Virus record (IMG/VR): IMGVR_UViG_2695420456_000021
DNA from: a virus
Lineage: Duplodnaviria > Heunggongvirae > Uroviricota > Caudoviricetes
Strand: one strand, 5' to 3'
Length of the DNA stretch: 33,504 nt
The number at the start of each line of letters is the position of its first letter. The stretch's first letter is position 1. The notes beneath the pieces were generated by a model, which ran no database searches, was not told where the DNA came from, and saw only the letters and a list, made by a program, of their open reading frames with translations. Positions 583 through 33,504 of this stretch are shown here, piece by piece. The translations under genes and the position numbers were made by a program.

Positions 583-1596
583 TTACTCTACTGTGGACAC
601 TGTGTGGACACTCTCGGCCTCAGTACCACCTCTTAGCGGATTAAGAGAAATGGCGTCCTGAAGGTACTCTGGCGCAAAGTGAGCGTAAACCATAGTTTGC
701 TCAATCCGCGTGTGACCTAGTATCCGTTGTAGCGTGATAATACTTCCTCCATTAATCATGAAATGAGTGGCAAAGCTGTGCCTTAGTGCATGTGTGGCTT
801 GCCCCATTGGCAAATCCGGTTTTATTGCTTTCATTGTTCGTCTGAAGCGAGGGTAATCAGCATCAGGGAATAAAAAACCTCGTTTGTTATCCGCGATCAT
901 TTTGGCAACAGCCTCTGAGATCGGGACGGTGCGTGGTTTGTTTGTTTTCGTTTTAACAAACGTGACGCGGTTATGGATGATATTTTCTGCTTTCAAACGA
1001 GCTGCTTCTCCCCAACGTGCTCCAGTACTCAGGCAAAGAATCGCAATCTTTTTATTGTCGCCGTCAAGAGCAGCAAGCAGTAAGGCAATTTCTTCCTGCG
1101 TGAGATAGCCTGTGTCTGGTTTTTCCTCCTTAAGCCTTTTTGTCCCTCTGATAGGGTGCTCACCAAAGAATAACTCCGCTTCAATCAGGGCTGTAAACAT
1201 GCCGCTAATACATGTTAAATCACGATTGATACTCGAAGGTTTAATACCCTGACTTCTTCGGGTGGCGCAGTACTGGCTGATAAGCGATTTCGTAATTTGA
1301 AATGCGCATGGGTCATTCGTTATTTTTGTGAAGATTTCAATTTTTCCAAGATTAGATTTCCCATGCTCTTCGTGTTTACCCTTTAAATCCCACCAGATCT
1401 GTGTCAGCTCCGACAGACGTCGCTTGTCTGTTGGTTTTGATAGCCATTCTTTATTGTGGTGGTTGTACAACGTGTATTTCTCGAAAGCGACAGCTTCGCT
1501 TTTCTTATCAAACTTCCTACGGATGCGTTTTCCATTACGTCCAGTAGGGCGGATGTCCACTTCATATCGACCATCATCGAGTTTTTTGATTGCCAT
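583..1596 (-). CDS. int: Tyrosine integrase, P2 Int-like (337 aa)
   Basis: ORF track; same length as P2 Int; C-terminal catalytic-region motifs (HALRHSFAT ... LGH ... Y); adjacent to att core. Confidence 0.95.
   Translation of the reverse strand: MAIKKLDDGRYEVDIRPTGRNGKRIRRKFDKKSEAVAFEKYTLYNHHNKEWLSKPTDKRRLSELTQIWWDLKGKHEEHGKSNLGKIEIFTKITNDPCAFQITKSLISQYCATRRSQGIKPSSINRDLTCISGMFTALIEAELFFGEHPIRGTKRLKEEKPDTGYLTQEEIALLLAALDGDNKKIAILCLSTGARWGEAARLKAENIIHNRVTFVKTKTNKPRTVPISEAVAKMIADNKRGFLFPDADYPRFRRTMKAIKPDLPMGQATHALRHSFATHFMINGGSIITLQRILGHTRIEQTMVYAHFAPEYLQDAISLNPLRGGTEAESVHTVSTVE
592..610 (+). promoter_or_regulatory. Tandem TGTGGACA direct repeats, 11-bp period (putative Int arm-type binding sites, P' arm)
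   Basis: tgtggaca at 592-599 and 603-610; similar tandem pair (tgtggtca/tgtggac) on the opposite arm at 31913..31930. Confidence 0.4.
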
Positions 1597-6455: not shown

Positions 6456-7586
6456 ATGAAAAAAATAACCAAGAGAGAAAGAGAGAGAGATATTTTACGA
6501 TCCTATTTACATCGTACAGGAAGAGATGTTGTATCTGCAGGGCGCTCTAAGATTAATCCTATTTCAAAAGCATCAAAAATAAATCGTTGGATAAATGCGC
6601 AAATTAAAGATGGATTAAATTGCGAAATAAGGAAAAATAGAGACCTTTTCCTTACTTTACCTAAAAAGATGAACTTTTCAAGTAATTACCATCGTACAAT
6701 GCAGGCCATACAAACGATTAGGCATCTTACGGGGCGGAAGATATTTAATAACCAATGTTATCGTCTTTGTTTTGTTGACTTTTCGAAGATTGAATATATT
6801 TCTGCATCTGCCGCATTGGTATTGACCGCGGAATTATCAAAATGGGATGATTCGGTAAGGCAACGCATTCGCCCAAAAGTGAAAACGTGGAATAAAAACA
6901 TACTCTCTCAATTTGATGAGTTGGGTTTTTTTGACTTATTTAGAAATAAAGATAGTTTTGAGCTTGAAAAAGAAAAGGAACCAAGTAATATCCGTTTTGT
7001 TAAGTATATGAAAGGACATTTACATGATGATGAAAAAACTCAGCATTTAAAAAAAGAAATAAAGCGTATTGTGGGAGAAGACCTTGGTAAATGGACTTTC
7101 CTATACAGTGGTTTGTCCGAAGCTATTACAAATGTTGTTCATCATGCTTATCCAGATAATAAAGGCTATCATGAGCATGATAAAAAATGGTATTTAACTG
7201 CTTCATATGATAGTTCAAGTAGAATAATAAAAGTAGTGTTTTATGATCAAGGTATTACAATTCCTGGGTCTTTGCCGGAATCTAAACTCCATGAAAAGGT
7301 TTTAAATTACCTTTCGAAGTTACCGCTTGCAGAACGAAAAAGAGATGAACAATTGTTAAAGGCTGCAGTTGAAATCAAACGTTCTAGTACGGGGGAAGAG
7401 GATCGGGGTAAAGGCTTGCAGGACTTGTTGGAGTTCATAAAGCAACGTGGTGAAGGTTATCTTTCAATTATGAGTGGTAAAGGCCTTTACAAATACTCAC
7501 AACATGATAAAAAATCTGAGGTAAAATCAGTAAGCTTCGCTCTGCCTGTTTGTGGTACACTTATAGTATGGAGTACAAAGCTATGA
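6456..7586 (+). CDS. Cargo protein 1 (376 aa): N-terminal STAS-like segment plus C-terminal GHKL/HATPase_c-like ATPase (anti-sigma-factor-kinase-like)
   Basis: RBS aagggggg before ATG. Motifs 'EAITNVVHHAY' (N-box-like), 'YDQGITIPG' (G1-like), 'DRGKGLQDL' (G2-like); N-terminal 'VDFSKIEYISASAALVL' resembles the STAS core. No Walker A. AT-rich. Confidence 0.75.
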   Translation: MKKITKRERERDILRSYLHRTGRDVVSAGRSKINPISKASKINRWINAQIKDGLNCEIRKNRDLFLTLPKKMNFSSNYHRTMQAIQTIRHLTGRKIFNNQCYRLCFVDFSKIEYISASAALVLTAELSKWDDSVRQRIRPKVKTWNKNILSQFDELGFFDLFRNKDSFELEKEKEPSNIRFVKYMKGHLHDDEKTQHLKKEIKRIVGEDLGKWTFLYSGLSEAITNVVHHAYPDNKGYHEHDKKWYLTASYDSSSRIIKVVFYDQGITIPGSLPESKLHEKVLNYLSKLPLAERKRDEQLLKAAVEIKRSSTGEEDRGKGLQDLLEFIKQRGEGYLSIMSGKGLYKYSQHDKKSEVKSVSFALPVCGTLIVWSTKL

Positions 7587-7972
7587 TTACTAGATTGGTT
7601 GCTAGCCTCATGAAAACATTGAAGATTGGTTCAGAGTTCTCGAAAGTTCCCAGAGGCCGCTATCGTACTGACGGGACAGCAAGTGGTGAACGGTTTAGAG
7701 AAGATTTCTTAAGGAAGCGTCTAAGCTTGCTTTCTGCTGGGGAAAAATTGCAGATAGTCATCGACGATGATGTCGAAGGATATGGTTCGTCTTTTTTGGT
7801 GGAGGGCTTTGCGGGCATGGTAAAATATGGATATATGCATGCCAATGAATTATTGTCTAAAATTGAAATTAAATATACTAATCCTGATTTTGATTTCTAT
7901 AAAAAGAAAATAGAACAATATATCAACGAGGCGCAGTTTAATTCGAAACGATATGAGCCAACAGTCGAATAA
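7583..7972 (+). CDS. Cargo protein 2 (129 aa): small STAS-like / DUF4325-like protein
   Basis: ATG 7583 overlaps the gene-1 stop as ATGA; ggag 8-9 nt upstream. Motif 'IVIDDDVEGYGSSFLVEGF'. Track start 7550 lacks an RBS. Confidence 0.65.
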   Translation: MITRLVASLMKTLKIGSEFSKVPRGRYRTDGTASGERFREDFLRKRLSLLSAGEKLQIVIDDDVEGYGSSFLVEGFAGMVKYGYMHANELLSKIEIKYTNPDFDFYKKKIEQYINEAQFNSKRYEPTVE

Positions 7973-8615
7973 TCCGATGTTTATTTTAGGTGAGAGTTCT
8001 GGTGAGTTCTCACCTAGTTTGCTTTTTATCAAGAAGGATAATGAAGAAGGCCTGAGTGCTACTCATGCAGTTAAGGATATTAATACGGTAATTGAAGTAG
8101 CTAGTTCTAATATTGTTGATGCAATACGGCATCCACCTGAAACGCCTATTTTATCGTCATCACTTATTACGGCTCTTATTAGTACTATTTGTGCGGCTAC
8201 TGCCGCATTTGCATATAATAAAGTCCATTGGCGTTCTGTTGTTAAACGGGAGACTAAAACCAAACTCCTGGAGAGTATTTCAGATGTGGTTAATGAGTTG
8301 CGTTCTGATGCTATTAGTTATTGGTTGAAGGGGTATTCAAAAAAGTCGGCGAAGTCTCTCTTAGAAGAGGAAATGAGAATTAAGGCGAGTTTAAATATAA
8401 TAAATTCGACTATAACAATATATGTTCAGCAAGAGTCGCGATGGAAAAGAAAGGATATTGAAGCTCAGTTAAGGGTTTTTCATGACGAACTTTTTGATAT
8501 TATAACAGGTGATGATTTTGAGTCTCAGGCAAGGAAGCAGGATAAGGCAAAGGTTTCTGCTATTTCTACAAAGTGTGTGGCTTTTCGCGTTTTATTAAAT
8601 ACCATCAAGTTTTAA
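7953..8615 (+). CDS. Cargo protein 3 (220 aa): predicted single-pass membrane protein, candidate effector
   Basis: Start overlaps the gene-2 3' end by 20 nt; hydrophobic stretch 'PILSSSLITALISTICAATAAFAY' (about residues 65-88); charged C-terminal region. Alternative start ATG 7977. Confidence 0.6.
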   Translation: MSQQSNNPMFILGESSGEFSPSLLFIKKDNEEGLSATHAVKDINTVIEVASSNIVDAIRHPPETPILSSSLITALISTICAATAAFAYNKVHWRSVVKRETKTKLLESISDVVNELRSDAISYWLKGYSKKSAKSLLEEEMRIKASLNIINSTITIYVQQESRWKRKDIEAQLRVFHDELFDIITGDDFESQARKQDKAKVSAISTKCVAFRVLLNTIKF

Positions 8616-15459: not shown

Positions 15460-15741
15460 ATGACAGCAGAAGAAAAAAGCGTCCTGTCGCTTTTCATGAT
15501 TGGGGTGCTGATTGTTGTCGGCAAAGTGCTTGCCGGTGGTGAACCCATCACCCCGCGTCTGTTTATCGGGCGCATGTTGCTCGGTGGTTTTGTCTCGATG
15601 GTTGCCGGTGTTGTTCTGGTGCAGTTTCCTGACCTGTCACTGCCTGCGGTGTGCGGCATCGGCTCCATGCTGGGTATCGCCGGTTATCAGGTGATTGAGA
15701 TTGCCATTCAGCGCCGCTTTAAGGGCAGGGGGAAACAGTAA
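15460..15741 (+). CDS. Y: Holin, P2 Y-like (93 aa)
   Basis: ORF track; hydrophobic segments; position before the endolysin. Confidence 0.85.
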   Translation: MTAEEKSVLSLFMIGVLIVVGKVLAGGEPITPRLFIGRMLLGGFVSMVAGVVLVQFPDLSLPAVCGIGSMLGIAGYQVIEIAIQRRFKGRGKQ

Positions 15742-16238
15742 TGCCGGTAATTAACACGCATCAGAATATCGCGGCCTTTCTCGACATGCTGGCCGTGTCC
15801 GAAGGGACGGCGAATCATCCGCTGACGAAAAACCGGGGCTATGACGTGATAGTCACCGGACTGGACGGGAAGCCGGAAATTTTCACCGACTACAGTGACC
15901 ACCCGTTCGCGCATGGCCGACCGGCGAAGGTGTTTAACCGTCGCGGTGAAAAATCCACAGCCTCCGGTCGCTATCAGCAGCTTTACCTGTTCTGGCCGCA
16001 TTACCGCAAACAGCTTGCCCTGCCGGATTTCAGTCCGTTGTCACAGGACAGACTCGCCATTCAGTTGATCCGCGAACGCGGTGCACTGGATGACATCCGG
16101 GCGGGACGCATTGAGCGCGCCATTTCACGCTGTCGCAATATCTGGGCGTCCCTGCCGGGTGCCGGTTACGGTCAGCGTGAGCATTCACTGGAAAAACTGG
16201 TCACCGTCTGGCGTACCGCCGGCGGCGTACCGGCTTAA
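15741..16238 (+). CDS. K: Endolysin (lysozyme), P2 K-like (165 aa)
   Basis: ORF track; size and synteny; 'LDMLAVSEGT' lysozyme-like N-terminus. Confidence 0.9.
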   Translation: MPVINTHQNIAAFLDMLAVSEGTANHPLTKNRGYDVIVTGLDGKPEIFTDYSDHPFAHGRPAKVFNRRGEKSTASGRYQQLYLFWPHYRKQLALPDFSPLSQDRLAIQLIRERGALDDIRAGRIERAISRCRNIWASLPGAGYGQREHSLEKLVTVWRTAGGVPA

Positions 16239-16252
16239 ACGGAGTAAACACC

Positions 16253-16678
16253 ATGAAGAAATTATCCCTTTCACTGATGCTGAACGTGTCGCTGGCGCTG
16301 ATGCTGGCACTGTCCCTGATTTACCCGCAGAGCGTGGTCGTCAATTTTGTCGCTGCCTGGGCGATTCTGGCGACGGTTATCTGTGTGGTTGCCGGTGGTG
16401 TCGGCGTGTATGCCACTGAGTATGTACTTGAACGCTACGGGCGGGAGCTGCCGCCGGAATCGCTGGCCGTGAAGATTGTCGCATCGCTGTTTTTGCAGCC
16501 GGTGCCGTGGCGCAGACGGGCAGTGGCTCTGGTGGTGATGGTGACGACATTTATCTCGCTGGTCGCTGCCGGGTGGATTTTTACCGCGCTGATTTATCTC
16601 GTGGCGTCGGTGTTCTTCCGGCTGATACGTACGGCCTGCCGTCAGCGTTTTGAGGGGCGGGAACCATGTCAAAGCTGA
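16253..16678 (+). CDS. lysA: LysA-like membrane protein (lysis timing)
   Basis: ORF track; 141 aa, highly hydrophobic; follows K. Confidence 0.75.
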   Translation: MKKLSLSLMLNVSLALMLALSLIYPQSVVVNFVAAWAILATVICVVAGGVGVYATEYVLERYGRELPPESLAVKIVASLFLQPVPWRRRAVALVVMVTTFISLVAAGWIFTALIYLVASVFFRLIRTACRQRFEGREPCQS

Positions 16679-17091
16679 TGATTGTGCTGGTTGTGTTGTT
16701 ATCACTGGCGGTGGTCGGTCTGTTTCTGGTGAAACACAAAAATGCCAGCCTGCGCGCCTCGCTGGACAGGGCGAACAGTGTCGCCAGCGGGCAGCAGACG
16801 ACCATCACCATGCTGAAAAATCAGCTTCATGTTGCCATCACCAGGGCAGATAAAAACGAGCTGGCGCAGGTGGCAATGCGTCAGGAGCTGGAGAACGCCG
16901 CGAAGCGTGAAGCACAGCGCGAGAAAACCATCACGAGGTTACTTAATGAAAACGAAGATTTTCGCCGCTGGTACGGTGCTGACCTGCCTGATGCTGTGCG
17001 CCGGTTGCACCAGCGCCCGGCCTGCACCGACGCCAGTGATTGTCGCCAACGCCTGCCCGAAAGTGAGCCTTTGCCTGATGCCGGGCAGTGA
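16666..17091 (+). CDS. lysB: LysB-like inner-membrane spanin (Rz-like)
   Basis: ORF track; N-terminal TM segment then coiled-coil-like region. Confidence 0.75.
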   Translation: MSKLMIVLVVLLSLAVVGLFLVKHKNASLRASLDRANSVASGQQTTITMLKNQLHVAITRADKNELAQVAMRQELENAAKREAQREKTITRLLNENEDFRRWYGADLPDAVRRLHQRPACTDASDCRQRLPESEPLPDAGQ

Positions 17092-17236
17092 CCCGCAGAC
17101 GAACGGCGATTTAAGTGCCGATATCCGGCAGCTTGAGAACGCGCTGGCACGCTGTGCCAGCCAGGTAAAAATGATTAAACACTGTCAGGACGAAAACGAT
17201 GCTCAAACCCGACAGCCTGCGCAGGGCACTGACTGA
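16946..17236 (+). CDS. lysC: LysC-like outer-membrane lipoprotein spanin (Rz1-like, 96 aa), out-of-frame overlap with lysB 3' end
   Basis: ATG 16946 inside the lysB frame; signal peptide with lipobox 'LCAGC'; gagg RBS. Confidence 0.65.
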   Translation: MKTKIFAAGTVLTCLMLCAGCTSARPAPTPVIVANACPKVSLCLMPGSDPQTNGDLSADIRQLENALARCASQVKMIKHCQDENDAQTRQPAQGTD

Positions 17237-17666
17237 TGCCGTCACGGTGCTGAAAACCAGCCCCGAGATGCTGCGGATATTCGTGGATAACGGGAGTATT
17301 GCCTCCACACTGGCGACGTCGCTGTCATTCGAAAAGCGTTACACGCTCAATGTCATTGTGACCGATTTTACCGGTGATTTTGACCTGCTCATCGTGCCGG
17401 TGCTGGCGTGGCTGCGGGAAAATCAGCCCGACATCATGACCACCGACGAAGGCCAGAAAAAGGGCTTCACGTTTTATGCAGACATCAACAATGACAGCAG
17501 CTTTGATATCAGTATCAGCCTGATGCTGACCGAGCGCACGCTGGTCAGTGAGGTGGACGGCGCGCTGCATGTGAAGAATATCCCGGAACCCCCGCCGCCG
17601 GAGCCGGTCACCCGCCCGATGGAGCTTTATATCAATGGCGAACTGGTGAGCAAGTGGGATGAATGA
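17199..17666 (+). CDS. R: Tail completion protein, P2 R-like (155 aa)
   Basis: ORF track; size and synteny. Confidence 0.85.
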   Translation: MLKPDSLRRALTDAVTVLKTSPEMLRIFVDNGSIASTLATSLSFEKRYTLNVIVTDFTGDFDLLIVPVLAWLRENQPDIMTTDEGQKKGFTFYADINNDSSFDISISLMLTERTLVSEVDGALHVKNIPEPPPPEPVTRPMELYINGELVSKWDE

Positions 17667-18111
17667 GTTTAAGCGTTTTGAAGACCGGCTGACCGGACTG
17701 ATTGAGTCGCTGTCACCGTCAGGGCGTCGGCGACTGAGTGCAGAACTGGCGAAACGTCTGCGGCAGAGTCAGCAGCGCCGGGTGATGGCACAGAAAGCCC
17801 CGGACGGCACACCCTACGCGCCACGCCAGCAGCAGAGCGCCAGAAAAAAGACCGGTCGTGTTAAGCGAAAAATGTTTGCGAAACTTATCACCAGTCGTTT
17901 TTTGCATATCCGCGCCAGCCCGGAACAGGCATCAATGGAATTTTACGGCGGGAAGTCGCCGAAAATCGCCAGTGTGCATCAGTTCGGTCTGTCGGAAGAA
18001 ACCCGGAAAGACGGTAAGAAAATTGATTATCCGGCGCGTCCTCTGCTCGGCTTTACCGGTGAGGATGTGCAGATGATTGAAGAGATTATCCTGGCTCACC
18101 TCGACCGTTAG
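17659..18111 (+). CDS. S: Tail completion protein, P2 S-like (150 aa)
   Basis: ORF track; size and synteny. Confidence 0.85.
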   Translation: MNEFKRFEDRLTGLIESLSPSGRRRLSAELAKRLRQSQQRRVMAQKAPDGTPYAPRQQQSARKKTGRVKRKMFAKLITSRFLHIRASPEQASMEFYGGKSPKIASVHQFGLSEETRKDGKKIDYPARPLLGFTGEDVQMIEEIILAHLDR

Positions 18112-18177
18112 TTGTGCCATTCCCGACACCTCATCGTCACATTGCCGCCGGTATGACCCGGCGGCATCCTTCCCGTT

Positions 18178-23665: not shown

Positions 23666-25009
23666 ATGGCTACTTATGCTTCTTATTTACCAGAATCACA
23701 AATTATCACTTTGTGCAAGGATTTCCCAGCGTTTACTGATCCTGAAAAATTAGATGGATTCATTAATCCAGAACAGTTTGGCGTGTTTTTTCATGAGTGG
23801 ATTCATTTTCTTCACAATATTTCCACAATTAATGGGTTTTCTATTTTTTGCACGCAAAACATCCTGTGGTCTAATTTTCGCTGGGCAATGGACAATCAGG
23901 ATGTATGTCTTGGTTCAAATGACATGGATCCAGCACATATCGAATCAAACAAAAATTTTCTCAGTTACATTCGTTCCAATAGGAGTCTGCATAAATGTAA
24001 CTTACCTTATTATGTAAAAGTAAACGACTTGTATTTTGAGGATGCAATAATCCATGACATGGAGGTTGCTGACGGTAGTGTTATATGTACATCATTAATA
24101 AAGTGTAGAATTTCTCATTCTGAAAACAAATACGATCTAGATTTAGGCGTGCTTGAAATACTTGAATCCGCAGCTTTTATGCTTGAATGTAAGTGTATTA
24201 ATGCGATGAATGGCTTCCCTCAAGAGGCACCCTTTTATCCGTATCATACTATCAAAGGCTTAGCAGCGAAAATTGCTCCGTCATTAAATGATGAAGATAT
24301 TATTTGTTGTATGTTAGCTTCTTTGCAATCTAATAACCCTCCCCAAGTATTATTCAATCTACTACATAAATGTGAATTATTACATTCTGATTGTAGGTAT
24401 GAACATCTAGTGGCGGAGGTGAAAAAACAATTAAGCGAACAAGATCAAATAATAAGCGAGTCACTTAATCAAATAATTCAAATGATTCCTGTTGATGAAC
24501 CGATGGGAAACTTTATCAAGCTTACTCTTAACAGAATAAGTAACAATTTGAACTATAGAAAGCAAAAACCGTTTTTTGAGTTAGATATAATAAAAAAAAT
24601 AGCAGAAAAAACTGAGTTTATGAATGAAGTAATACAGAAATTCGGTGGTTGCACTATCATCCAGGTAAGACATGGAGATGATAATGAACCACAGCGTGAT
24701 ATTATGTATGACTTTTGCTTACCTGAAAATAATGATTCAATTTTATTTGGTTCGAAAATGCTACGCGCTTGTTTTCACTTTATATTTATTCACTTTAAAC
24801 TTTCTGGTGAAATCATGAAGACAGAAGAATTAAATATTTCGCCGCGTAATAAATGCCCATTTTATACTGTTTGCTGTGCATCAATTCGAGCTAATAATAG
24901 TAATATCTGCGCTGAATCCCCTTGGAAATCAATGTCTATTGATGACAACAAAGGTTGTTATTATGCAGCAGCGATTAAAGCTACTAACCCACCAGTTTTG
25001 CCGGATTAA
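23666..25009 (+). CDS. Cargo protein (447 aa) with N-terminal HExxH motif and Cys-rich C-terminal half; possible Zn-dependent hydrolase, function unknown
   Basis: RBS agagga before ATG; 'FFHEWIHFLH' at residues 41-50 (codons about 23792-23806); many Cys pairs; about 32% GC in a sampled line; occupies the P2 Z/fun position. Confidence 0.7.
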   Translation: MATYASYLPESQIITLCKDFPAFTDPEKLDGFINPEQFGVFFHEWIHFLHNISTINGFSIFCTQNILWSNFRWAMDNQDVCLGSNDMDPAHIESNKNFLSYIRSNRSLHKCNLPYYVKVNDLYFEDAIIHDMEVADGSVICTSLIKCRISHSENKYDLDLGVLEILESAAFMLECKCINAMNGFPQEAPFYPYHTIKGLAAKIAPSLNDEDIICCMLASLQSNNPPQVLFNLLHKCELLHSDCRYEHLVAEVKKQLSEQDQIISESLNQIIQMIPVDEPMGNFIKLTLNRISNNLNYRKQKPFFELDIIKKIAEKTEFMNEVIQKFGGCTIIQVRHGDDNEPQRDIMYDFCLPENNDSILFGSKMLRACFHFIFIHFKLSGEIMKTEELNISPRNKCPFYTVCCASIRANNSNICAESPWKSMSIDDNKGCYYAAAIKATNPPVLPD

Positions 25010-31970: not shown

Positions 31971-31998
31971 TAAAAAATAAGCCCGTGTAAGGGAGATT
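31971..31998. repeat. attR core: 28-bp direct repeat, also the 3' end (terminator half plus U-tract) of cyaR
   Basis: Identical to 476..503. Confidence 0.75.
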
Positions 31999-32058
31999 AC
32001 ACAGGCTAAGGAGGTGGTTCCTGGTACAGCTAGCATTTTATGGGTTATGTTTTTCAGC
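31972..32058 (-). ncRNA. cyaR: CyaR (RyeE) small regulatory RNA, 87 nt, intact
   Basis: Reverse complement matches the E. coli CyaR sequence as I recall it (GCTGAAAAACATAACCCATAAAATGCTAGC ... CCTTACACGGGCTTATTTTTT); TGTGA half-site about 40 bp upstream, consistent with its CRP-dependent promoter. Confidence 0.85.
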
Positions 32059-32142
32059 GAAACGGATGATAACCTTAATAAATACAGCTGTATGTGATCG
32101 GTTTCTAAGAATTTTCCATCCGGGAAAAATAATCGAAATTAA

Positions 32143-33504
32143 TCACTTACCGTGGGGATTACGCGTGGTTTCCCCGGAGAAATTACGCATCAGCAGCGCG
32201 TAATTGAGCTCAAGATCCTGCGGGACCGGGAGCCACACAGTATAACCATCGCCTGGTGCTATCGGCATAGCTTCGCCTTTGGCGTTTTCCATGTGCTCAA
32301 GGGTAAAATTAATGTTGCCTTGCGGCGTCATCAGCTCAAGGCTGTCGCCAACGGAGAATTTATTTTTCACCGCTACCGCCGCGAGGTCCCCCTTGCGCTC
32401 ACCGGTAAACTCACCAACAAACTGCTGGCGGTCAGAAACTGAATAACCGTATTCGTAGTTCTGATAATCGTCGTGAGTATGACGACGCAGGAAACCTTCG
32501 GTATAGCCACGATGCGCCAGACCTTCCAGAGTTTCCAGCAGGCTGGTATCGAACGGTTTTCCCGCAGCGGCGTCATCGATAGCTTTGCGGTAAACCTGTG
32601 CGGTGCGTGCACAATAGTAGAAAGATTTGGTACGACCTTCGATTTTCAGCGAATGCACGCCCATTTTGGTCAGGCGTTCTACATGGGCGATGGCGCGCAG
32701 ATCTTTCGAGTTCATGATGTAAGTGCCGTGCTCATCTTCAAACGCGGTCATATACTCGCCCGGACGCTGGGCCTCTTCGATCATAAACACTTTGTCGGTT
32801 GGTGCGCCGATACCCAGCGTCGGCTCAACATTTTGCACCGGAATCGGCTCGTACTTGTGTACGATGTTGCCAACATCATCTTCTTTCCCTTCCTGGACGT
32901 TGTACTCCCAGCGGCAGGCGTTGGTGCAGGTGCCCTGGTTCGGGTCGCGCTTGTTGATATAGCCAGAGAGCAGGCAGCGACCGGAGTAGGCCATGCACAG
33001 CGCGCCGTGAACGAAGATCTCGATCTCCATATCCGGCACCTGATTGCGGATCTCTTCAATCTCTTCCAGCGACAGCTCGCGAGAGAGGATCACGCGGGTC
33101 AGGCCCATTTGCTGCCAGAATTTCACCGTCGCCCAGTTCACGGCGTTAGCCTGCACCGAAAGGTGGATCGGCATTTCAGGGAAGTGCTCACGCACCAGCA
33201 TAATCAGCCCTGGATCGGACATAATCAGCGCATCCGGCCCCATTTCCACCACCGGTTTCAGGTCACGGATAAAGGTTTTCAGCTTGGCGTTGTGCGGTGC
33301 AATGTTGACCACGACATAAAACTTTTTCCCCAGCGCGTGGGCTTCATTGATGCCGAGCTGAAGATTTTCGTGGTTGAATTCGTTGTTGCGCACACGCAGG
33401 GAATAACGCGGCTGGCCCGCATAAACAGCATCTGCGCCATAAGCGAAAGCGTAACGCATATTTTTCAGCGTTCCCGCCGGGGAAAGGAGTTCCGGTTTAA
33501 ACAT
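32143..33504 (-). CDS. yegQ: Peptidase U32-family protein YegQ (453 aa), host gene; start codon at the window edge
   Basis: ORF track; full-length ORF; position next to cyaR as in E. coli. Confidence 0.85.
   Translation of the reverse strand: MFKPELLSPAGTLKNMRYAFAYGADAVYAGQPRYSLRVRNNEFNHENLQLGINEAHALGKKFYVVVNIAPHNAKLKTFIRDLKPVVEMGPDALIMSDPGLIMLVREHFPEMPIHLSVQANAVNWATVKFWQQMGLTRVILSRELSLEEIEEIRNQVPDMEIEIFVHGALCMAYSGRCLLSGYINKRDPNQGTCTNACRWEYNVQEGKEDDVGNIVHKYEPIPVQNVEPTLGIGAPTDKVFMIEEAQRPGEYMTAFEDEHGTYIMNSKDLRAIAHVERLTKMGVHSLKIEGRTKSFYYCARTAQVYRKAIDDAAAGKPFDTSLLETLEGLAHRGYTEGFLRRHTHDDYQNYEYGYSVSDRQQFVGEFTGERKGDLAAVAVKNKFSVGDSLELMTPQGNINFTLEHMENAKGEAMPIAPGDGYTVWLPVPQDLELNYALLMRNFSGETTRNPHGK

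Follow-up and report, generated by a model that had tools for sequence, protein, structure and literature searches.

The lysB and lysC genes of phage P2 have been the textbook example of an overlapped spanin pair since 2004-2007. When co-expressed, P2 lysB and lysC reportedly complemented lambda Rz/Rz1 null mutants, a result ascribed to Markov et al. 2004 (J Bacteriol 186:4628). LysB and LysC of P2 are treated as the paradigm of overlapped spanins (PMC6139136, PMC3556154, PMC3091744), and they are taken to act like lambda Rz and Rz1, that is, to link both membranes and then to fuse or disrupt them after holin and endolysin (PMC6139136, PMC3091744, PMC3556154). In the overlapped class (Summer et al. 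2007; Kongari et al. 2018, PMC6139136) the gene for the outer-membrane subunit (o-spanin) begins, in the +1 frame, inside the gene for the inner-membrane subunit (i-spanin) and reaches past its end. The i-spanins of this class have one N-terminal transmembrane domain, the o-spanins a signal peptidase II signal and periplasmic cysteines.

Here we describe such a pair in a window of 33,504 nt, which is the whole stretch of DNA that was analysed and to which all positions refer. The genes Y, K, lysA, lysB, lysC and R as well as the elements within and directly before them are located on the plus strand. With a probability of about 0.96, the region discussed here contains lysB and lysC, the two-component spanin genes of a P2-like (Peduovirus) prophage, arranged as an overlapped pair. 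For the comparison, 80 related loci from other species were fetched and 78 of them analysed; together with P2 and the window these make up 80 sequences. Codon position variability was calculated from a nucleotide alignment of 70 loci.

Prophage and lysis cassette

Judged by its sequence, the whole window is an integrated P2-like (Peduovirus) prophage. In the segment from lysA to R the DNA identity is 96-97%, both with phage P2 and with 74 further Peduovirus records, and the annotated Peduovirus matches name the two genes either lysB/lysC or Rz/Rz1-like spanins. Of 5426 complete E. coli genomes, 1604 (~30%) carry the same cassette.

The lysis cassette opens with the holin gene Y (15460..15741; PF04550 Phage_holin_3_2, E 2.6e-42; phrog_175), followed by the endolysin gene K (15741..16238; phrog_90, E 1.4e-70), both at the positions that they have in P2. 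RefSeq labels the K product as glycoside hydrolase family 104. The next gene, lysA (16253..16678; NF038378, E 7.7e-35), corresponds in position and length to P2 lysA and encodes a membrane protein affecting lysis timing; its 3′ end overlaps the start of lysB by 13 nt. With Y, K and lysA immediately upstream of lysB, the overlapped spanin genes lie in a holin/endolysin cassette. Downstream of the pair are the tail-completion gene R (17199-17666; PF06891, E 6.1e-45) and, after R, the tail gene S (17659-18111), giving the gene order Y-K-lysA-lysB/lysC-R-S, which is the P2 order. An integrase-sized ORF is located at one end of the window (583-1596), and the opposite end contains the CyaR/RyeE sRNA gene of the host (31975-32060) together with a gene for a U32 peptidase.

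The inner-membrane subunit LysB

The lysB gene (16666..17091) codes for an inner-membrane spanin subunit of 141 aa. The sequence GAGGGG at 16652..16657, 8 nt before the ATG at 16666, can be read as its Shine-Dalgarno motif, and the supplement of Kongari 2018 gives the same motif for P2 LysB (PMC6139136). LysB is a member of the NCBIfam equivalog TIGR03495, with a score of 172.3 bits (curated cut-off 92.75; E 5.9e-51) and a match that spans residues 7-140 and positions 2-135 of the 135 model positions. It also matches phrog_89 "Rz-like spanin" (E 6.3e-60) and is 95% identical to P2 LysB without gaps. A Pfam scan of LysB at E <= 0.01 returned a sub-threshold DUF5937 as the sole match, and a PDB sequence search revealed no solved relative of LysB (best E 0.2) or of LysC.

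The domain structure of LysB is that of an i-spanin with a single N-terminal transmembrane segment and a helical periplasmic domain, according to both the sequence and a structure model. The transmembrane segment comprises residues 4-22 (LMIVLVVLLSLAVVGLFLV, 16675..16731) and is visible in the translation as an unbroken hydrophobic stretch; the table of Kongari 2018 lets the periplasmic domain of P2 LysB begin at K23 (PMC6139136). In the AF2 single-sequence model of LysB, residues 2-115 form one continuous helix (mean pLDDT 82), which is followed by a non-helical tail bearing Cys120 and Cys126. Two periplasmic cysteines are present in 64 of 70 LysB sequences.

Gene geometry and family of LysC

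The lysC gene (16946..17236) encodes the o-spanin, a predicted outer-membrane lipoprotein made as a precursor of 96 aa. This assignment is based on two protein families, the identity to P2 LysC and the conserved start. LysC reaches 126.2 bits with the equivalog NF038368 "P2_Rz1" (cut-off 27) and 59.5 bits with Pfam PF23793 "LysC" (cut-off 27; E 3e-16), and is thus a member of both families; it also matches phrog_456 "Rz-like spanin". Its identity to P2 LysC is 95%, again without gaps. The length of 96 aa is kept in 67 of the 78 relatives, and 23 protein columns are invariant. After the predicted removal of the signal peptide the mature protein has 76 residues with seven prolines, six of them in the first 30 residues. 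Four periplasmic cysteines are found in 79 of the 80 LysC sequences.

The initial annotation had placed the start of lysC at an ATG at position 16946, within the 3′ end of lysB but in another frame, and had let the gene run past the lysB stop. These coordinates were confirmed, and the geometry is that of P2 (AF063097). The two start codons are 280 nt apart (16946-16666), which puts lysC in the +1 frame of lysB. Both genes overlap by 146 nt (16946-17091), and lysC continues for another 145 nt beyond the lysB stop. The overlap is a dual-coding segment that encodes LysB residues 94-141 and LysC residues 1-49, and it varies less than any other part of the locus. In 77 of the 78 relatives, the o-spanin gene likewise begins out of frame within the i-spanin gene, in its +1 frame, and ends past its stop; the overlap is 146 or 158 nt long in 73 relatives. 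A second overlap, which the initial annotation had not mentioned, connects the 3′ end of lysC with the start of gene R (38 nt, 17199..17236). The same lysC/R arrangement was described for P2 by Lynch 2010 (PMC3091744).

It had furthermore been suggested that lysB and lysC are the equivalents of Rz and Rz1, with P2 lysB/lysC named as the comparison to be made. The layout of the two loci proved to be identical and each of the two proteins is 95% identical to its P2 counterpart, so that this proposal is upheld by protein identity, by shared geometry and by the scores in curated family HMMs.

Translation start of lysC

Three starts are in use or conceivable for lysC: the ATG at 16946, an ATG further downstream at 16991 and the beginning of the open frame at 16829. 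Conservation of the internal start at 16946 had been chosen beforehand as one of two features on which the initial annotation should stand or fall. The codon aligned with 16946 is ATG in 77 of the 78 relatives and GTG in the remaining one. It is preceded by the Shine-Dalgarno motif GAGG (16935..16938), which ends 7 nt before the ATG. Among the relatives, GAGG is found at this 7-nt spacing before the lysC start in 58 of 78, and AAGG in 10 more; GAGG is also the motif given for P2 LysC in the supplement of Kongari 2018 (PMC6139136).

In many genomes, RefSeq/PGAP annotations start lysC at Met16 (ATG 16991), which results in an 81-aa protein beginning with MLCAGC. PGAP has put this start in an E. 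coli locus with 99.1% identity (L082 992-1237), many LysC entries at NCBI are 81 aa long, and Met16 is found in 64 of the 78 relatives. In the other 14, however, codon 16 is ACG or CTG, and ATG 16991 has no Shine-Dalgarno motif ahead of it, in contrast to the conserved upstream ATG with its GAGG motif. The 81-aa form would have five residues before the lipobox cysteine and neither a basic n-region nor a hydrophobic core, and therefore could not be exported or lipidated. In all 80 sequences the 15 residues upstream of Met16 retain signal-peptide character. The alignment to NF038368 begins at residue 4 of the 96-aa protein, and the curated P2 record as well as the spanin census of Kongari 2018 (PMC6139136) take LysC as 96 aa. 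A start at Met16 is thus very improbable and was rejected, because codon 16 is variable, a Shine-Dalgarno motif is missing and the export signal would be lost.

Even less probable is translation of the full ORF 16829..17236, which would yield a 135-aa product with the lipoprotein signal in an internal and non-functional position. In the window, in P2 and in three Escherichia relatives that are close to it, the frame is indeed open from 16829 on, and a few database calls use long forms (for instance 141 aa for P0010 and 132 aa for P0008). Against this, 41 of the 78 relatives have an in-frame stop 0-4 codons before the conserved ATG, in 18 of them directly before it, and 54 of 78 have no upstream ATG in frame. 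The ATG at codon -39 is kept in only three of the 78 relatives, all of them close Escherichia, and no Shine-Dalgarno motif precedes 16829. The family HMMs start at residues 4 and 16 of the 96-aa LysC, which also argues against an N-terminal extension.

The pattern of nucleotide variation leads to the same result. In the segment 16829-16945 the variability at lysB codon positions 1/2/3 is 0.253/0.229/0.469. The peak at the third positions of lysB coincides with the second positions of the lysC frame, and a maximum there (0.469) is incompatible with coding in that frame; this stretch therefore codes for LysB only. Thus, the 5′ extension of 39 codons (16829..16945), which is open in the lysC frame in the window, is non-coding in this frame, since the relatives have stops near the ATG and the variation follows the lysB frame only. 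The initial annotation had considered these first 39 codons of the ORF to be probably untranslated. The stops in 41 of 78 relatives, the loss of the ATG at -39 in all but three, the missing Shine-Dalgarno motif and the lysB-frame variability bear this out, and a start at 16829 is refuted by the comparison with the relatives. The 81-aa LysC of RefSeq and the mechanically called 135-aa ORF are therefore probably both wrong, and lysC starts at ATG 16946.

Codon position variability and a hairpin within lysC

Further downstream, exactly at the predicted boundaries, the lysB-frame pattern of variability gives way to a double constraint and this in turn to a lysC-frame pattern. In the overlap (16946-17088) the values for positions 1/2/3 of the lysC frame are 0.087/0.158/0.188. 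The overlap thus has 0.087-0.188 per codon position compared with 0.22-0.47 in the part that codes for LysB only, and the low variability at all three positions indicates a dual constraint. Past the lysB stop (17092-17198), the lysC frame shows 0.161/0.096/0.331. In the overlap of lysC with R (17199-17233), the values for the R frame are 0.157/0.131/0.394. Variation in the last part of lysC (17199-17236) follows the third positions of R, which suggests that the LysC tail is weakly constrained; the dominance of the R frame in these last 38 nt agrees with the variable C-terminal tails of LysC proteins.

Inside lysC the RNA fold contains an 8-bp hairpin at 17143..17161 (GCTGGCAC-GCT-GTGCCAGC). 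A feature of the P2 record, "putative transcription attenuator; O operon" (8399-8417), maps to exactly this position. The hairpin at 17143-17161 is not followed by a U-tract, a terminator scan gave nothing at this position, and the 76-nt hairpin context folds no better than shuffled sequences (z = -0.79).

This annotated attenuator, with the same 8-bp hairpin in the window, is what could be cited for the view that the lysC frame overlaps lysB by chance and that the only importance of the sequence is as the 3′ end of lysB and as an RNA attenuator upstream of R and S. That view has next to no likelihood and is refuted by the codon position signal: past the lysB stop the variation concentrates at lysC third positions, 96 aa and 23 invariant columns are kept among the relatives, the curated equivalog HMM recognizes the protein, the hairpin lacks a U-tract, was missed by the terminator scan and is of ordinary stability, and an attenuator would coexist with lysC coding and not replace it.

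Signal peptide and lipobox of LysC

The N-terminus of the window LysC reads MKTKIFAAGTVLTCLMLCAG followed by CTSARPAPTP. Residues 1-20 (MKTKIFAAGTVLTCLMLCAG, 16946..17005) form the predicted signal peptide, the n- and h-region features of which are present in all 80 sequences: each has 1-3 K/R in the first six residues and no D/E before Cys21, and the hydrophobic core has a mean Kyte-Doolittle value of 1.87 across the 80 sequences. The window signal peptide differs from that of P2 only at residue 2, which is R in P2 and K in the window.

A lipobox LCAGC had been noticed in the N-terminus of LysC by the initial annotation. It is present as L17-C18-A19-G20-C21 (16994..17008), and Cys21, the predicted lipidated residue, is invariant in 80 of 80 sequences. 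In these sequences, position -1 is only G, A or S and position -2 is A, V or S, while position -3 is Cys in 71, Ser in eight and Leu in one. An Asp at position +2 of a lipoprotein is the signal for retention in the inner membrane. The window LysC has Thr at +2, and Thr is found in 79 of the 80 sequences, Asn in one and Asp in none; by the established +2 rule, outer-membrane sorting of LysC is therefore predicted.

The lipobox of the window LysC fails three common patterns, PROSITE PS51257, DOLOP [LVI][ASTVI][GAS]C and [ILMFTV][^REKD][GAS]C, and among all 80 LysC sequences these match 15, two and 10, respectively. The failure is due to the Cys at -3. For P2 LysC, Kongari 2018 reports a LipoP signal peptidase II cleavage between residues 20 and 21 (supplement) and, in the table, the lipobox LCAG, four periplasmic cysteines, a second LipoP site between residues 17 and 18 and the remark "No hit by Prosite" (PMC6139136). 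With cleavage at this second site, position -1 would be Leu, and nine relatives have Ser or Leu in place of Cys18, which makes Cys21 the credible acylation site. The initial annotation had also named the lack of a predicted signal peptidase II site as grounds for refutation; on this point the answer varies with the predictor, since the simple patterns fail and LipoP is reported to cut P2 LysC. Given the conserved Cys21, the small residues at -1 and -2 and the LipoP report for P2, we attribute the mismatch to the limits of the patterns and do not count it against lipidation. A literature search of partial coverage returned no direct demonstration of LysC lipidation.

The codons of the lipobox overlie, in the other frame, the conserved LysB motif LPDAVRRLH. 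We infer that the Cys at -3 results from this dual coding, and pattern-based lipoprotein predictors consequently miss the LysC site.

Discussion

Gene geometry, family membership, the conservation of the start, of the ribosome-binding site and of Cys21, and the dual-coding constraint were established in this analysis. For lipidation, sorting, complex formation and membrane disruption we rely on the literature on P2 and lambda, which suggests the following function. LysB would be a type II inner-membrane protein with the transmembrane helix 4-22, a long helical rod in the periplasm and a short C-terminal tail with two cysteines. LysC starts at ATG 16946, behind a GAGG ribosome-binding site of its own that is located within lysB. 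Its signal peptide is predicted to be cleaved by signal peptidase II before Cys21, which would then become lipidated, and for the mature LysC of 76 residues, proline-rich near its N-terminus and with four cysteines and Thr at +2, the predicted destination is the outer membrane. If they act as lambda Rz and Rz1 do, LysB and LysC would join via their C-terminal regions to a periplasm-spanning complex that passes through the meshes of the peptidoglycan. The cell wall would be destroyed by holin Y and endolysin K, with LysA modulating the timing, and as the last step of phage lysis the spanin pair would break the outer membrane.

The initial observation is hence confirmed and its interpretation supported; the feature is a familiar and very widespread one, and as a discovery it has little value. 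Its value lies in the annotation, since the comparison with the relatives settles the start of lysC at the Shine-Dalgarno-preceded ATG 16946. In addition, the data document that a non-consensus lipobox with Cys at -3 is maintained in the LysC family.

The closest known system is P2 itself (AF063097 / NC_001895; LysB AAD03278.1, LysC AAM83596.1), which has the same genes with the same product lengths of 141 and 96 aa. In AF063097, lysB (7922-8347) and lysC (8202-8492) show the offset of 280 nt and the +1 frame found in the window, and the lysB/lysC overlap of 146 nt and the lysC/R overlap of 38 nt are likewise shared. The P2 gene orf30, located downstream of S in P2, is absent from the window. 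Altogether, 18 nucleotides differ between P2 and the window in the 571 nt. From P2 to the window, LysB carries the changes R3K, A17V, N38S, L58I, L71M, P127R and M130L, and LysC the changes R2K, P25R, P34A, P44L and A95T. Within the dual-coding segment, the substitution at position 17019 leads to P25R in LysC and is silent in LysB, the one at 17045 changes both proteins (P34A in LysC, P127R in LysB), the one at 17053 leads to M130L in LysB and is silent in LysC, and the one at 17076 leads to P44L in LysC and is silent in LysB.

Three of these changes, P25R, P34A and P44L, hit the proline-rich N-terminal part of mature LysC, of which P25 is the first proline. Arg25 is present in seven of 69 relatives with a 96-aa LysC, whereas Leu44 is found in none of these 69, nor in the close cluster representatives inspected. 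Since P44L is unique in this comparison, full activity of the window allele is not guaranteed. The allele might behave unlike P2 LysC, with a shifted lysis timing or as a weaker spanin, which we regard as unlikely.

The lambda pair is more distant. The lambda gene Rz1 lies entirely within Rz, while lysC continues beyond the end of lysB, and compared to Rz1 the mature LysC is longer, has four cysteines and a lower proline content (7/76). Neither LysB nor LysC matches the lambda-type Rz/Rz1 Pfam families at E <= 0.01, and other Rz-like PHROGs gave weak matches only (phrog_739, 9e-5; phrog_214, 1e-4). On the basis of the missing Pfam match, lambda Rz/Rz1 are functional analogues of related architecture and not members of the same sequence family. 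By their family matches, the two proteins described here are members of the sequence families of P2 LysB and P2 LysC. The pair does not differ in kind from the overlapped class, of which P2 is the textbook example, with two cysteines in LysB and four in LysC.

Start codon and C-terminal end of LysC

In RefSeq/PGAP annotations lysC is often given as an 81-aa reading frame with the N-terminus MLCAGC..., starting at Met16 (window 16991; for example positions 992-1237 in L082, an E. coli locus). This form lacks the n- and h-regions of the signal peptide. Because Met16 is missing in 14 of the 78 related lysB/lysC loci and a conserved Shine-Dalgarno sequence precedes the upstream ATG, the comparative data favour the 96-aa LysC starting at that ATG over the 81-aa form, which looks like a systematic start-site mis-call.

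At the 3′ end of the gene, the final 12 lysC codons overlap the tail gene R (window 17199-17236). Variation in this overlap is governed by the R frame, and the C-terminal tail of LysC therefore appears, as judged from the alignment, to be only weakly constrained. Its length is variable too, ranging from 88 to 106 aa in the relatives.

Proline substitutions in LysC

Compared to P2 LysC, three prolines are replaced in the window copy: P25R, P34A and P44L (codons 25, 34 and 44, at window positions 17019, 17045 and 17076, respectively). P25 is also the most N-terminal proline of the mature protein. None of the 69 relatives with a 96-aa LysC shares the P44L exchange. The nucleotide differences behind P25R and P44L leave LysB unchanged. 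According to a secondary source, lysis timing is altered when the first two prolines of LysC are changed.

Hairpin in lysC and the S-V interval

An 8-bp hairpin, GCTGGCAC-GCT-GTGCCAGC, is located within lysC (window 17143-17161), at the position where the P2 annotation places a putative attenuator of O operon transcription. The hairpin has no U-tract and was not picked up by the terminator scan, and the stability of its context is not unusual (z = −0.79). Further downstream, P2 carries orf30 on the opposite strand between S and V; this gene is missing from the window, where the end of S (18111) and the start of V (18178) are separated by a gap of only 66 nt (18112-18177), in which no terminator-like site was found.

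Host DNA and ORFs at the Z/fun and tin/old positions of P2

The right end of the prophage is flanked, on the minus strand, by the host CyaR/RyeE sRNA gene (window 31975-32060; 100.7 bits against Rfam RF00112) and by a gene for a U32 peptidase (32143-33504). It follows that the window holds an integrated prophage together with host DNA and is not a free phage genome.

A 447-aa ORF (window 23666-25009), with neither a Pfam nor a PADLOC match, lies between the tail-fibre assembly gene G and the tail sheath gene FI, where P2 has Z/fun. Three cargo ORFs of 376, 140 and 220 aa (window 6456-8615) are encoded in the interval that separates the replication gene from the capsid genes. PADLOC gave no match for any of the three, and their sole Pfam match is a weak one of the 140-aa ORF to DUF4325 (STAS-like). 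They occupy the site of tin/old in P2, a locus known to be variable, and could form an accessory or defence module that has yet to be characterised.
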